From: Escherichia coli
Lineage (GTDB): Bacteria > Pseudomonadota > Gammaproteobacteria > Enterobacterales > Enterobacteriaceae
DNA length: 64,000 bases
NCBI RefSeq assembly: GCF_003334255.1
Contig: NZ_QOWU01000011.1
Direction: 5' to 3' (one strand)
Both the position numbers and the translations under genes were made by a program. The notes beneath the pieces were generated by a model. The model was not told where the DNA came from and made no database searches. It saw nothing but the letters and a program-made list of their open reading frames with translations. Shown here piece after piece: positions 1-60,337 of this stretch (positions are counted from its first letter, which is position 1; each line of letters starts with the position of its first letter).

Positions 1-97
1 ACGCGAGGCATCGTCTTAACGAGGCACCGAGGCGTCGCATTCTTCAGATGGTTCAACCCTTAAGTTAGCGCTTATGGGTTTTACCCCCGCGTGGTGG

Positions 98-250
98 CTA
101 CTTCTTCGATTCGTAAGCGAGAACTGCCTTAAACTCCATACCACGTTCTCTGATACTCAACTCACACAACGAGTCGCCTACCATCAGCGTGAATCCCAGT
201 ACTGTAAAACACAGCACTATGATTGCCACAAGGGCATATTTTGTCAGCAT
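98..250 (-). CDS. Hok/Gef-family type I toxin, 50 aa small membrane peptide (below ORF-track cutoff)
   Basis: Minus-strand [53 protein letters not shown]: N-terminal hydrophobic helix, conserved SLCE and C-terminal AYES motif typical of Hok family; GGGAGG Shine-Dalgarno 6 nt upstream; a 12-codon upstream ORF (244..282) stops overlapping the start codon. Confidence 0.7.
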
Positions 251-514
251 GTCTTGCCTCCCTGCAAAGAAGAGACTAACATTCGAATTGTTTGGGTTCG
301 AACGTAAGCCTCAGGTTGATAGAAATATCGCCTGGGGCTTTTGTCCATCTGGAACCTCGCGAATGCTTAACGCCAGACAGCCTCAAGCACCCGACGCCAT
401 TCTATACCTGATAATTCTTCCAGCGGCGTTCACGTTTAAAATCAGGAATACTGCTCGCAAAATAAAAACGCCCCCATCATTTCTGACAGAGGCGTTTAAT
501 TTATCCGGCAATAT

Positions 515-1249
515 TTACCCTTCGTGCAATCCACATTCCCTTTTTAAGCCAAAGAAACGTGTTTCTTCTTCCGACATGCCAGGTTCCCATTTACGGGTTG
601 TATGGATATCACCGACCGATAAATATCCTTCATCCCATAATGGGTGATATTTCAGGCCATGTTTTTGCAGGTACTGATAAATAGTTCGGTTATCCCAGTC
701 GATAATCGGCAGCACTTTAAATACGCCACGCTGAATTGCCAGCACCGGTAAATTGGCGCGGCTGCCGGATTGTTCGCGGCGCAGGCCAGCAAACCAGGTT
801 TGCGCGTTAAGTTCTTTCAGCGCCCGGTTCATCGGTTCGACTTTGTTGATGTCATTGTACTTTTCAATGCCTTCAACGCCCTGTTCCCACAGTTTGCCGT
901 AGCGTGCTTCCTGCCAGGCGGCGCTTTCGGTAGCACGGTACACTTTCAGGTTGAGCTTGAGTTTGTCCGTTAACTCGTCAATAAAGCGGTAGGTTTCCGG
1001 AAACAGATAACCGGTATCGGTGAGGATCACTGGAATATCCGGCCGAATCTGATTCACCAGATGCAGGCTCACCGCCGCCTGAATGCCGAAGCTGGAAGAA
1101 AGCACATATTCACCGGGCAGATTATCCAGCGCCCAGGCTACGCGGCCTTCAGCGTCCAGTTTTTCCAGTTGGGCGTTAGTTTCCGCCAGCGCCAGAATGC
1201 GATCTACCTTCGGCAGTTCGTTCAGGGCGTTTAGATCGAGTTTGGACAT
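515..1249 (-). CDS. cysH: phosphoadenosine phosphosulfate (PAPS) reductase, 244 aa
   Basis: ORF 515..1402; internal Met giving [23 protein letters not shown]... matches remembered CysH; in operon with cysI/cysJ. Confidence 0.95.
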
Positions 1250-1270
1250 AGATTCCTCACTGTTTGCCTT

Positions 1271-1308
1271 GCCTGATGCGACGCTCACGCGTCTTATCAG
1301 GCCTACAA
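1271..1308. repeat. REP (repetitive extragenic palindromic) element in cysI-cysH intergenic region
   Basis: gcctgatgcgacgct...gcgtcttatcaggcctac palindromic REP consensus. Confidence 0.8.
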
Positions 1309-1322
1309 GACCGGGCTGATGG

Positions 1323-3035
1323 TTAATCCCACAAATCGCGCGCCGGATCGAGCACCGGGCGAATGATGCCCGCACGCACCGTAAAGTCGCCGAAGCCTTC
1401 ACCCGCTTCGCGCTCTTTCGCCCAGCGCCCTATCAGTTCATCAAGCGACGCCAGGATTTCCGGCTCGGTGATGTTTTCTTTATACATCCGAGGGATACGT
1501 GTCCCAATGCGGTTGCCGCCAAGATGCAGGTTGTAGCGACCCGGCGCTTTACCCACCAGGCCCACTTCCGCCAGCATCGCGCGACCACAACCGTTCGGGC
1601 AGCCTGTTACACGCATCACGATATGCTCATCGCTGACACCATGTTTCGCCATTAAATTATCGATGTTGTCGATAAAAGACGGCAGGAAACGCTCCGCTTC
1701 CGCCATCGCCAGCGGGCAAGTCGGGAATGACACGCAGGCCATTGAGTTTTCACGCTGCGGCGTGACGGCATTCATTAACCCGCTCTCTTTGGCGATCTTC
1801 TCGATCTTCGCTTTCTCGCTTTCCGGTACACCGGCGATGATCAGATTCTGGTTCGCCGTAATGCGGAAATCGCCTTTGTGGATCTTCGCGATCTCCAGCA
1901 GGCCGGTTTTCAGCGGACGCGCCGGATAATCAAGGATGCGACCATTTTCGATAAACAGCGTCAGGTGCCAGTTATCATCAATGCCCTTAACCCAGCCAAT
2001 ACGATCGCCTCGTCCGGTGAACTCATATGGACGGATCGGTTCAAATTTGATCCCCGCGCGACGCTCCACTTCCGCTTTAAACGTCTCAACCCCCACGCGC
2101 TCCAGCGTGTATTTGGTTTTGGCATTTTTACGATCGGTTCGGTTACCCCAGTCACGCTGAGTTGTCACGACGGCTTCGGCCACCGCCAGCGTATGCTCCA
2201 GCGGCAGATAGCCAAACTCACTCGCGGTGCGGGCGTAGGTTTTCTTGTTGCCGTGTTCGATGGAAAGCCCACCGCCCACCAACAGGTTAAAGCCCACCAG
2301 CTTGCCGTTTTCGGCGATCGCCACGAAGTTCATGTCGTTGGCGTGCAGATCGATATCGTTCTGTGGCGGGATCACTACCGTGGTTTTGAATTTACGCGGC
2401 AGGTAGGTCTGGCCGAGGATCGGTTCTTCATCAGTAGTGGCGACTTTTTCCTGGTCGAGCCAGATCTCCGCATACGCGCGGGTACGCGGCAGCAGATGCT
2501 CAGAAATCTTCTTCGCCCACTCGTACGCTTCCGCGTGTAGCTGCGACTCGTAAGGGTTCGAGGTGCAGAGTACGTTACGGTTCATGTCGTTAGCGGTCGC
2601 CAGCGCATCAAGACCAACCGAGTGCAGCATCTGGTGCACCGGTTTGACGTTCTTTTTCAGAATGCCGTGGAACTGAAACGTCTGGCGGTTGGTCAGGCGA
2701 ATGCTGCCATAGATGGTGTTTTCACCGGCAAATTTGTCTATCGCCTGCCACTGTTTAGTGGTAATCACCCCACCCGGCAGACGGCAGCGCAACAGCATCG
2801 CGTGGCGCGGCTCCAGCTTCTGTTCAGCACGTTCGGCGCGGATGTCGCGGTCATCCTGCTGATACATGCCGTGGAAGCGGATCAGCAGGAAGTTGTCGCC
2901 CTTAAAGCCGCCGGTCAGACCGTCGTTTAAATCTTCCGCAATGGTGCCGCGCAGGTAGTTGCTTTCAAGCTTCATGCGCTCGGCGTCTGTCAGTTTTCCT
3001 TCGACCACTAAAGGCCCTGGATGTTTTTCGCTCAT
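1323..3035 (-). CDS. cysI: sulfite reductase hemoprotein beta subunit, 570 aa
   Basis: Full-length [25 protein letters not shown]...; siroheme/4Fe-4S sulfite reductase; overlaps cysJ stop by 1 nt. Confidence 0.96.
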
Positions 3036-4834
3036 TAGTAGACATCTCGCTGATAACGGCGCTCTACGCGCAGCTCACTTAAAAATTCATCCGCCGCTTC
3101 GGTGTCCATGCCACCAAATTCGGCAATCACTTCCAGAAGTGCCTGCTCAACGTCTTTCGCCATGCGATTAGCGTCACCGCAGACATAAATGTGGGCACCG
3201 TCATTGATCCAGCGCCACAGCTCCGCGCCCTGTTCGCGCAGTTTGTCTTGTACGTAAACTTTTTCTTTTTGGTCGCGCGACCAGGCGAGATCGATCCGCG
3301 TCAGCACACCCTCTTTGACGTAGCGCTGCCACTCCACCTGGTAGAGGAAATCTTCCGTAAAGTGCGGGTTGCCAAAGAACAGCCAGTTTTTTCCCGGCGC
3401 TTCATCGGCAGCACGTTGCTGCATAAAGGCGCGGAACGGCGCGATGCCGGTGCCTGGGCCAATCATAATCACCGGGGTTTCTGGATTGGCTGGCAGGCGG
3501 AAGTTATCGTTATGTTCGATAAATACGCGGACTTCGCCCTCTTCTTCCACGCGGTCAGCGAGGAAGCTGGAGGCACCACCGGCACGGGCGCGGCCTTCCA
3601 CGTCGTAACGCACCACACCAACGGTGACGTGTACTTCGTTCTCGACTTCCGCCTGCGAGGAGGCAATGGAATAGAGACGCGGCGTCAGCGGGCGCAGCAG
3701 ATTAATTAGCGCTTCGGCATCAAGCTGTGCCGGGGAGAAACGCACCATGTCAACAATCGGCGTCGTCGCGGCGTAATGCTGTAACTTCGCTTTATCGCCC
3801 ACCAGCGGCAGCAGTGTTTCACTGCGGGTAAGCGTGGCGTAATTCTCAACAATGTTGGCGGTGTTGACGGTCAGTTCGAAGTGCCACTGTAGCGCTTCGT
3901 TCAGAGGCAACGTTTTGCCCTCGACGGTGACAGGTTCATCGCCTTTCAGCCACAGCAGTTCGACAAGTTCTTTCACCAGTGCCGGATCGTTCTGATACCA
4001 GACGCCCAGCGCGTCACCCGGCTGGTAACGCAGGCCCGAGTCACCTAAGTCAATTTCGATATGGCGAACGTCTTTTTCAGAGTTACGCCCGGTAATTTTC
4101 TGGTTAACAGAGAGGCTAGCCACCAGCGGCGCGTCTTTGCTGTACGGGCTGGTGTGGATTTCATTTACCGCGCCAGTAGCGACGGATTGCGAAGGTGCCG
4201 CGACAGGCGCACGCGATTTAAGCGCATCAACCACGCGGGCGCGCCACTCGCTGGCAGCAGCCTGGTATTCAACATCGGCATCGACACGGTCGAGCAGGCG
4301 TTCACCACCCAGTTCCGCCAGCTTGCTGTCGAAATCTTTCCCGGACTGGCAGAAAAATTCATAAGAGCTATCGCCGAGGCTAAACACGGCAAACGCGGTG
4401 TTTTCCAGCTTTGGCGCTTTTTTGGAGAACAGGAACTTATGCAGCGCGACGGCTTCTTCCGGCGGTTCCCCTTCCCCTTGCGTTGACGTCACTACGATGA
4501 GCAGTTTTTCGCTGGCGATTTGTTTGAATTTATAGTCGCCCGCGTTCACCAGCTTAACGTTCAGTTTTGCTGCTAATAAATCATCACGTAATGCTTCAGC
4601 AACCCGGCGCGCATTGCCGGTTTGCGAGGCGGAGATAATAGTTATACCCGGCATTTCTGCGGCTGGCGCTGGCGTCGCTGCAAGCGCAGCAGGCTGCTGA
4701 TTGAGTACGCCCCAGAAATAGCCAGAAACCCAGGCAAGCTGGGTGGGAGTTAAATCGGTCGTGGCCGCCTGAAGGCGTGCCAGTTGCTCCGGGTTCAACG
4801 GAAGCAACGCGGAAGGTGGGACCTGTGTCGTCAT
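3035..4834 (-). CDS. cysJ: sulfite reductase flavoprotein alpha subunit, 599 aa
   Basis: Full-length [31 protein letters not shown]...; flavodoxin + FAD/NADPH domains. Confidence 0.96.
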
Positions 4835-37029: not shown

Positions 37030-37400
37030 AATAAAAAAAGGGAGCACTGTATTCACAGCGCTCCCGGTTCGTTTCGCAGCATTCCAGCTACTTTTGTTGC
37101 TCCCTGCTCATCCTTGACAACTTTTCCTCTGGCCTTGCGGCCAATCGTTCATCCTGAACTATTGCTTCCTGCTCACACCACCCCGATGTGATACTTCATC
37201 CTGAAGTGTCCCTGGCCTTCCTGACCCACCGAATCATCCTGACCGGTTCTCATTCTCCATCCTGGAGGTGTCCTTTAACGCGTCCTGCGTCATCCTCTTC
37301 GCTTCATCCAGAAGCCTTTCCCTGAAACACCATCCTGGTGTGTCCTGCAGAAGTGTCATCATCCTGATGTTCACTTCGTTGTCTGACTCCCTGTCGACGA
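37030..37400 (-). ncRNA. csrB: CsrB regulatory sRNA (CsrA-sequestering), ~360-370 nt
   Basis: Minus-strand sequence begins ...GAGUCAGACAACGAAGUGAACAUCAGGAUGAUGACAC..., carries >12 GGA-containing motifs (many CAGGAUG) and ends with hairpin GGGAGCGCUGUGAAUACAGUGCUCCC + U7; no long ORF. Confidence 0.93.
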
Positions 37401-55569: not shown

Positions 55570-55775
55570 ACTTCCTGAGCCGGAACGAAAAGTTTTATCG
55601 GAATGCGTGTTCTGGTGAACTTTTGGCTTACGGTTGTGATGTTGTGTTGTTGTGTTTGCAATTGGTCTGCGATTCAGACCATGGTAGCAAAGCTACCTTT
55701 TTTCACTTCCTGTACATTTACCCTGTCTGTCCATAGTGATTAATGTAGCACCGCCTAATTGCGGTGCTTTTTTTT
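55570..55775 (+). ncRNA. gcvB: GcvB Hfq-dependent sRNA, ~206 nt
   Basis: ACTTCCTGAGCCGGAACGAAAAGTTTTATCGGAATGCGTGTTCTGGTGAAC...GT-rich region GTTGTGATGTTGTGTTGTTGTGTTTG...terminator GCACCGCCTAATTGCGGTGC + T9; divergent from gcvA. Confidence 0.93.
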
Positions 55776-58740: not shown

Positions 58741-58919
58741 AGGTTATCCCTCACCCTAAACGCATAAATGCCTGATGCGCTACGCTTATCAGGCCTACAT
58801 AACTCCTGCAATATTTTGGATTTGCATGATTTGTAGGCCGGATAAGGCGTTCACGCCGCATCCGGCATGAACAACGCGCACTTAGTCAATAATCAGGATG
58901 TGAGGTTACCCCTCACCCT
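58741..58919. repeat. REP/BIME cluster flanked by ~18-bp direct repeats, tcdA-mltA intergenic region
   Basis: REP palindromes gcctgatgcgctacgcttatcaggcctac and gtaggccggataaggcgttcacgccgcatccggca, flanked by GAGGTTATCCCTCACCCT (58741..) and GAGGTTACCCCTCACCCT (58901..). Confidence 0.7.

Positions 58920-60260: not shown

Positions 60261-60337
<77 letters not shown>

Follow-up and report, generated by a model that had tools for sequence, protein, structure and literature searches.

An IS186-interrupted hokX/sokX locus of Escherichia coli, a paralogue of hokE/sokE that is probably disabled for delayed killing

The hok/sok type I toxin-antitoxin systems described to date include hok/mok/sok of plasmid R1 and the chromosomal hokC (gef) and hokE/sokE of Escherichia coli K-12, and a documented pattern among them is the repeated insertion of IS186 in the GC hairpin behind the hok gene (hokC and hokE in K-12; hokX in E. 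coli B and many others). The hokX/sokX system has itself been named in the literature (PMC7232551, PMC12736100, PMC3903273); hokX was first named in E. coli B and sokX is b4701 in K-12. Among 237 urinary isolates, hok and sokX stood beside cysH in 90%, the remainder having sokX alone in the manner of K-12 (PMC12736100), and the hok sok system was reported from all strains except carriers of E2 variant cas genes (PMC3903273). Here, we analysed a stretch of 64,000 nucleotides (nt) of E. coli DNA (assembly GCF_003334255.1, contig NZ_QOWU01000011.1), hereafter the window, and identified its positions 77 to about 430, with near certainty, as the chromosomal hokX/sokX locus. The overall explanation that we hold with strong confidence is that this locus is a paralogue of hokE/sokE which has been interrupted by an insertion sequence (IS), IS186, and probably disabled for delayed killing. 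Identity, anatomy, population distribution, the IS junction and predicted folds were obtained directly; from there we infer transcription starts, leader translation, toxicity and loss of function. The features of the locus are as follows, with the hok mRNA numbered from +1 at position 392, which places the hok AUG at +143.

1..76, plus strand: right end of IS186 (IS186/IS421 family), with the same sequence as the corresponding ends of K-12 IS186A and IS186B
77..86, no strand assigned: hok-proximal copy of the 10-bp target-site duplication GGTTTTACCC
76..92, minus strand: remnant of the GC-rich 3' hairpin of the hok mRNA, from comparison with an uninterrupted O26 allele
98..250, minus strand: hokX toxin open reading frame (ORF) of 50 residues, ATG 250..248 and TAG 100..98, from the ORF list
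244..282, minus strand: mok-like 12-codon upstream ORF, ATG at 282 (+111), from the ORF list
257..261, minus strand: hok Shine-Dalgarno GGAGG, 6 nt ahead of the ATG, read from the sequence
235..392, minus strand: hok mRNA leader, Rfam RF01794 (113 bits against a gathering threshold of 59, E 1.5e-26, model positions 1-157 of 157)
272..312, minus strand: Sok-target (sokT) hairpin GAGGCU...AGUCUC, from the RF01794 structure line
334..338 (mRNA +55..+59), minus strand: ucb-like box GCCCC, assigned by analogy with R1 (PMC9841398)
380..392, minus strand: putative hok mRNA 5' end with tac element GGGUGCUUGAGGC, from the first position of the Rfam model match
399..404, minus strand: probable hok promoter -10 box TAGAAT, 6 nt before the putative +1
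254..282, plus strand: putative sokX promoter, -35 TTGCCT (254..259), 17-nt spacer and -10 TAACAT (277..282), from alignment with the sequences that precede curated sokC and sokE
290..348, plus strand: sokX antisense RNA, equal to K-12 b4701 (NC_000913.3 2887353..2887411, plus strand)
466..497, minus strand: cysJIH terminator and right boundary of the module, a 14-pair stem and T-run found by terminator scan

A preliminary description of this DNA had proposed a 50-residue Hok-family ORF on the minus strand, and a profile search bore this out. The peptide matched the Pfam family HOK_GEF (PF01848) with an E-value of 3.5e-11 (43 bits, model positions 1-42 of 42, residues 5-46), far beyond chance, which by sequence makes it a member of the Hok/Gef family. 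The SLCE...AYES signature noticed earlier is present as DSLCEL and LAYESKK, the strong Shine-Dalgarno sequence as GGAGG (261..257), unchanged in every aligned allele, and the suggested alignment with hok paralogues gave 40 of 50 residues identical to HokE. The peptide is not HokA, scoring 57.7 bits against a cut-off of 89 for the NCBIfam equivalog NF007290, and it also fell below the NCBIfam Hok subfamily model NF007279 (41 bits, cut-off 73). Because it lies below these cut-offs, RefSeq gives it the generic name 'Hok/Gef family protein'. We also considered an N-terminal extension of Hok of the kind annotated for mokC, and rejected it as there is no upstream in-frame ATG, GTG or TTG.

The window carries the Phe15 allele of the peptide (WP_000956460.1), in common with BL21(DE3), strain 602354 and strain 800; the commoner allele, WP_000956458.1, has Cys15. 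All 15 alleles examined retain a full-length ORF. They fall into 7 ORF haplotypes that differ by nine synonymous changes and one non-synonymous change (Cys15 to Phe), in an ORF with 35 synonymous and 115 non-synonymous sites, and one and the same protein accession is found in alleles with flanking DNA that diverges by up to 6.6%. Judged by these substitutions the HokX peptide is under purifying selection, and so is not a decaying remnant.

The hokX block, taken as at least 80% of window 1..514, is carried by 4145 of the 5426 complete RefSeq E. coli genomes. In the sampled rows it always lies between cysH and cas3 or iap, and in all of them RefSeq labels the ORF 'Hok/Gef family protein'. The gene had been presented in the preliminary description as hidden, a view that these labels and the literature overturn: hokX/sokX was already known, having been described, named and annotated in thousands of genomes. 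The best-matching genome is that of strain 602354, with 100% identity across 1..514. For K-12, the statement that only sokX is annotated at this site proved correct. K-12 keeps window 248..514 alone, the identity ending exactly past the hok ATG and being followed by cas3-upstream DNA, so the end-point of the deletion or replacement lies at window 248 (about 4001 of the extracted K-12 locus). The K-12 leftovers comprise the hok promoter, the leader, the start of the mok-like ORF and sokX, which is the single feature of the curated record at the site; the toxin ORF is gone, unlike in the window.

K-12 and related strains thus live without the hokX ORF, and the K-12 hok loci are generally considered non-functional (PMC7232551), both of which would suit a reading in which the 50-residue ORF has arisen by chance or is the remnant of a decaying pseudogene and only sokX is real, as in K-12. 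This reading is already refuted at the level of sequence, by the Pfam E-value, by the full-length ORF in 15 of 15 alleles with nine synonymous changes against one non-synonymous, and by the annotation of the block as a coding sequence in the sampled rows of the 4145 genomes, and we give it practically no credence.

Upstream of the toxin ORF, the match to RF01794 spans the whole model, and by this homology a conserved, structured hok leader is present, with a 5' stem, a second hairpin, the Sok-target hairpin and a hairpin at the hok ribosome-binding site. RF01794 bears the name 'sok antitoxin', and its match is on the hok-sense strand, with a consensus that covers the hok mRNA from its 5' end up to the region of the hok start. 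Since curated sokX is on the opposite strand, an Rfam-based annotation marks the hok leader here and not the antisense RNA. Low RNA-seq and ribosome-footprint counts over the RF01794 element have been reported in O157:H7 EDL933 (PMC5331693).

The tac element GGGUGCUUGAGGC is conserved in hokC and hokE, and the candidate -10 box TAGAAT aligns with TATAAT of hokC and TAAGAT of hokE at an equal distance from GGGTGC. A consensus promoter and terminator scan of 1..560 returned two sites, the cysH terminator and a promoter-like sequence within hok that is irrelevant here. The promoter cut-off was 9 of 12 consensus matches, and both the hok and sokX promoters lie below it; no good -35 was found to accompany the hok -10 box. 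We therefore placed the hok promoter by alignment with hokC and hokE, and the sokX promoter by alignment with sokC and sokE.

Within the leader, GAGG at 312..309 (+81..+84) opens the sokT hairpin and aligns with the mok Shine-Dalgarno of R1 and hokC. In the full-length minimum free energy (MFE) fold of the intact O26 mRNA, the ucb-like GCCCC pairs with GAGGC (+81..+85). The differences between the sokT stems of hokX and hokE are compensatory (UUCGAA/UUCGAA against UCCAAA/UUUGGA), and the sokT loop CCCAAACAA is complementary to the 5' tail of SokX. Among hokX alleles this Sok-recognition loop (window 283..300) is the most variable part of the leader, reading CCCAAACAA, CCCUAAGCAA or CCGUAGCAA, with CCCGAACAA in hokE. 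Such differences might set specificity between Sok paralogues.

The antisense RNA had been expected on the plus strand at about 250..330. Strand and approximate region were right; the stretch 254..282 is instead the putative promoter, with 8 of 12 consensus matches, and the RNA would start near 290. The window sokX has three base differences from K-12 sokX. It is laid out as a 5' tail GUUUGGGUUCGAACG, a terminator hairpin GCCUCAGG...CCUGGGGC and UUUU, so that its real 3' end is probably near 343-345. The predicted fold has an energy of -24.7 kcal/mol and the architecture of sokC and sokE, and the tail GUUUGGGUUCGAACG is complementary to both the loop and the 5' arm of the sokT hairpin. The sequence thus has the promoter, single-stranded 5' tail and terminator hairpin of an antisense Sok RNA, and its expression is predicted.

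The short upstream ORF that had been picked out as overlapping the hok start also stood up to comparison. Its stop TGA (246..244) overlaps the hok ATG as AUGCUGA, and it forms the 3' part, in a common frame, of a 34-codon ORF that starts at ATG 348 (+45). The 12-codon ORF does not vary among the nine hok-bearing alleles compared, which have 93-100% identity, and its ATG at 282 is conserved in hokE. In seven of these nine alleles the 34-codon frame reaches a stop at +101, which is 40 nt short of the hok start, owing to changes in the hairpin loop, and we rejected it as the conserved mok frame on this ground. Because the shorter ORF is invariant while the longer frame is broken, the comparison favours the 12-codon ORF as the mok equivalent, and its translation is predicted. 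An ORF that ends on the hok start agrees with the result from R1, where mok translation is required only as far as the hok start (PMC9841398).

Two points stand against this assignment. No Shine-Dalgarno lies at canonical spacing from the 12-codon ORF, the GAGG being 26 nt upstream and across the hairpin, and the invariance of the ORF could reflect the overlapping sokX promoter or RNA structure. The invariant stretch also holds the hok ribosome-binding site in addition to the sokX promoter, and conservation alone is no proof of translation. By contrast, ATG 348 has a GAGG 6 nt upstream, the canonical distance for a Shine-Dalgarno (GAGGUUCCAGAUG). The two are also conserved in hokE, where the frame continues into hokE, and SokX is complementary to the region that begins directly after this ATG. 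Even so, a functional leader that starts at ATG 348 rather than at ATG 282 seems to us quite improbable. The 34-codon frame is interrupted in most of the divergent alleles and the ATG-282 frame is unchanged in all of them, ATG 348 lies within the 3' arm of the conserved 5' stem in both the Rfam structure and the full-length fold, and hokC has no ATG at that position.

With the 12-codon ORF as the preferred leader, one speculative extension can be drawn, which we consider unlikely though somewhat better placed than the 34-codon alternative: hokX may carry a natural 'minimal mok', a 12-codon leader with its stop on the hok start and a split ribosome-binding site, whose hairpin SokX unfolds. ATG 282 sits at the 3' foot of the Sok-target hairpin, and the hairpin would bring Shine-Dalgarno and AUG together. 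If true, this leader would be built unlike either R1 mok or mokC and mokE, which are in-frame extensions.

The first 76 bases of the window, which the preliminary description had passed over, are the right end of IS186, and only these last 76 nt of the element are inside the window, the remainder lying to its left. IS186 belongs to the IS4 family and is labelled 'IS421 family' by the Prokaryotic Genome Annotation Pipeline (PGAP). The 23-bp terminal inverted repeat CAACCCTTAAGTTAGCGCTTATG is at 54..76. In strain 602354 a full 1339-bp element occupies the site, 1338 nt of it identical to K-12 IS186, and alignments of the window to uninterrupted alleles begin at 76. The duplication GGTTTTACCC flanks both ends of the element in strain 602354, is present as a single copy in the uninterrupted O26 allele, and sits inside GCGGGG...CCCCGC. 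By sequence, then, the terminal repeat, the identity to reference copies and the target duplication at a GC-rich site mark this as an IS186 insertion.

The insertion point is 21 nt past the hok stop codon, in the loop of a GC hairpin. In the uninterrupted O26:H11 allele this hairpin, ACGCGGGG-GUAAAA-CCCCGCGU, begins 5 nt past the stop codon, and it is predicted in the folds of the intact mRNA. The window retains its 5' arm and loop but only 3 nt of its 3' arm. IS186 thus destroys the hairpin and displaces the fbi element by 1.3 kb, or fbi is deleted, as in E. coli B.

We then estimated how often this arrangement occurs. In 948 genomes, a 61-nt junction probe (window 50..110) was matched over at least 80% of its length. 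Rows taken at even intervals from the probe ranking, each standing for about 66 records, comprised 10 with IS186 at hokX in the present orientation, 2 with the opposite orientation at hokX and 3 representing hokE with IS186. From these we estimate that 750-800 genomes have IS186 in the hokX hairpin, about 14% of all genomes and about one fifth of hokX carriers; these frequencies are sampling estimates and not exact counts. The opposite orientation at the same hairpin is seen, for example, in NZ_CM136163.1 (1856..3197 of the extracted locus). The occurrence of both orientations indicates independent insertions at one hot spot, and the IS-bearing alleles include both peptide variants, Cys15 and Phe15. 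Hence, either IS186 has entered the hokX hairpin on two or more occasions or recombination has taken place between the alleles.

BL21(DE3) has an identical IS186 junction (100%) and the same protein accession, WP_000956460.1. We rejected the possibility that the window is BL21(DE3) itself, since identity over the aligned 45 kb is 99.76% and 99.09%. In BL21(DE3) (2467..4274 of the extracted locus) the IS186 by hokX abuts a CRISPR remnant beside iap, and the entire type I-E cas operon is missing. The insertion point of IS186 has been linked to the loss and exchange of the adjacent type I-E cas genes (PMC3903273), and the cas loss in BL21(DE3) is consistent with the IS-mediated deletion proposed there. 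Strains 602354 and 800 retain cas3 to the left of the IS; it is deleted in BL21.

Next, we compared the predicted folds of intact and interrupted transcripts. In the MFE fold of the intact 360-nt O26 mRNA, 5' GGGUGC..GAGGCU pairs with 3' GGUCUC..GCACCC, that is, tac pairs with fbi GGUCUCCUGCACCC; the fold has a z-score of -3.8 against shuffled sequences, and conservation between alleles ends just past the fbi element and its U-run. A reconstructed pre-insertion hokE mRNA also pairs its 5' and 3' ends. When an mRNA is trimmed to the GC hairpin the end pairing is lost and the sokT hairpin is formed, and the modelled IS-interrupted transcript is predicted to do the same. The check for fbi and tac that accompanied the preliminary description therefore fails in the window allele: because of IS186, fbi is split from hok, and the modelled transcript has no end pairing. 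As a substitute fbi, GCCUCGG in the IS186 end could pair with UUGAGGC of tac; we discarded this candidate, as the pairing is unused in the MFE fold of the modelled transcript. Taken as models, the folds reproduce the scheme for R1, in which the full-length RNA is inert and 3' trimming opens it, either for binding by Sok and degradation or for translation (PMC9841398).

We propose that the minus strand would give a hok mRNA from near 392, with the mok-like leader ORF at 282..244 and the membrane toxin HokX at 250..98, and that the plus strand would give a SokX of about 55 nt (290..~345), which would pair with the leader hairpin and block translation of both leader and toxin. In uninterrupted alleles, the 3' end (fbi GGUCUCCUGCACCC and the U-run) would fold back on the 5' tac and keep the full-length mRNA inert until it is trimmed to the protective GC hairpin. 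The IS186-bearing transcript would form no stable inert reservoir; it would take up the open, SokX-bindable form and be continuously neutralised. The toxin had been described as apparently intact, and this holds for the ORF but not for the mRNA, from which IS186 removes the 3' hairpin and fbi. Since IS186 splits the hairpin at its loop and moves fbi away, we think it somewhat more probable than otherwise that the window allele cannot build a stable mRNA reservoir and is disabled as a delayed-killing module, with the toxin ORF and sokX intact. In R1, toxicity is lost when mutations weaken the last 3' stem-loop, an effect that the authors ascribe to degradation by exonucleases (PMC9841398); at gef/hokC, IS186 is thought to disrupt fbi and processing, and the mRNA ends inside the IS (PMC3562002); and IS-flanked hok loci, that of hokX in E. 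coli B included, are treated as inactivated (PMC7232551).

Several considerations weigh against this conclusion and the wider account of the locus. The NCBIfam scores of the peptide are below their cut-offs; the mRNA 5' and 3' ends, SokX synthesis, leader translation and toxicity are extrapolated from homologous systems; MFE predictions are only suggestive; and a terminator scan of the IS186 end on the hok strand gave no canonical terminator, an imperfect stem followed by UUUUU, seen by eye about 140-175 nt past the hok stop and outside the window, being the only candidate for gef-type termination inside IS186. 'Inactivated' is also a literature inference, as gef of K-12, where IS186 is arranged in the same way, continues to be transcribed and antisense-regulated (PMC3562002). 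It is possible, if doubtful, that the IS186-bearing hokX is likewise a working pair whose mRNA ends in IS186, is controlled by SokX and yields toxin when SokX falls, for example under stress, so that the insertion changes the kinetics rather than inactivating the locus. In its favour, the window has an undamaged hokX ORF with its Shine-Dalgarno, leader ORF, sokT hairpin and sokX; the peptide, with Cys15 or Phe15, is intact in IS-bearing alleles; and a chromosomal R1 hok is lethal without Sok (PMC9841398). This possibility has to contend with the destroyed 3' hairpin, given the loss of toxicity in the R1 stem-loop mutants, with the absence of the inert, fbi-dependent mRNA reservoir that delayed killing needs in the R1 model, and with the treatment of IS-flanked hok loci as inactivated. 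Disablement for delayed killing thus remains our preferred reading. As a second, weaker possibility, IS186-interrupted alleles may be kept as a constitutively Sok-titrated form and not as a simply killed module.

Elsewhere in the window we noted the following features. Type I-E CRISPR repeats (CGGTTTATCCCCGCTGGCGCGGGGAACAC, 61-nt period) form two plus-strand arrays between ygcE and queE, at 16359..16443 (2 repeats) and 16952..~17300 (at least 6 repeats); Tandem Repeats Finder missed both, and a separate repeat search detected them. Approximately 46 kb of the window runs collinear with the annotated region of BL21(DE3), and no cas genes were found in this part. Between cysH and cysI, a REP-like palindrome (1270..1302) gave sub-threshold Rfam naRNA4 matches on both strands (33.6 and 22.8 bits against a gathering threshold of 59.5). 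Matches to CsrB, GcvB, the small RNA ES036 and tRNA-Met, at 37030..37389 (minus), 55570..55775 (plus), 58791..58833 (minus) and 60261..60337 (plus), are ordinary for this region of E. coli. From collinearity with BL21 (28144..28727 of the extracted locus), the mazEF type II pair is expected downstream of relA at about 24100..24700.

The practical value of the analysis lies in annotation: a real small toxin gene lies below the usual ORF cut-off, the Rfam 'sok' match is the hok leader on the sense strand, and the first 76 bases are IS186. What it adds to the described locus is the IS186 junction at the window edge, the preference for a 12-codon over a 34-codon leader and the strand of the Rfam match. 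The hokX findings open no new question.

Comparison of the locus with the described hok systems indicates which parts are shared and which have been altered. The closest paralogue is hokE/sokE of K-12, which shares with hokX, besides the 40 identical residues, the leader architecture, both upstream ATGs and the layout of the Sok promoter. IS186B occupies the loop of the equivalent GC hairpin behind hokE, with a 10-bp duplication as at hokX; the orientation of the element relative to hok is opposite to that in the window, and the chromosomal site differs. The upstream frames of hokE run in frame into hokE, owing to a 4-nt difference before the ATG, whereas that of hokX stops on the hok start. 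At hokC (gef), IS186A has the same orientation as at hokX and lies at a nearly equal distance behind the stop codon, with 193 nt from the insL stop to the hok stop at both loci. The HokC peptide is only distantly similar to HokX (7 identical positions in an ungapped comparison), and, unlike the hokX leader ORF, mokC as annotated extends the toxin N-terminally in frame, from a start in the 5' half of the target hairpin. The hok gene of R1 belongs to the same Pfam family as hokX, and the two systems share tac, ucb, the GAGG/dcb target hairpin, a leader ORF and an antisense RNA with a single-stranded 5' tail, together with fbi in the uninterrupted hokX alleles (PMC9841398). R1 is plasmid-borne and hokX chromosomal. 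The hokX leader ORF has 12 codons and ends on the hok start, whereas that of R1 has 70 codons and overlaps hok out of frame; in hokX the leader ATG falls within the 3' half of the hairpin and 26 nt separate it from the GAGG, compared with 8 nt in R1, and the hok start is at +143 in hokX and about +175 in R1. Unlike R1, the window allele has lost fbi.

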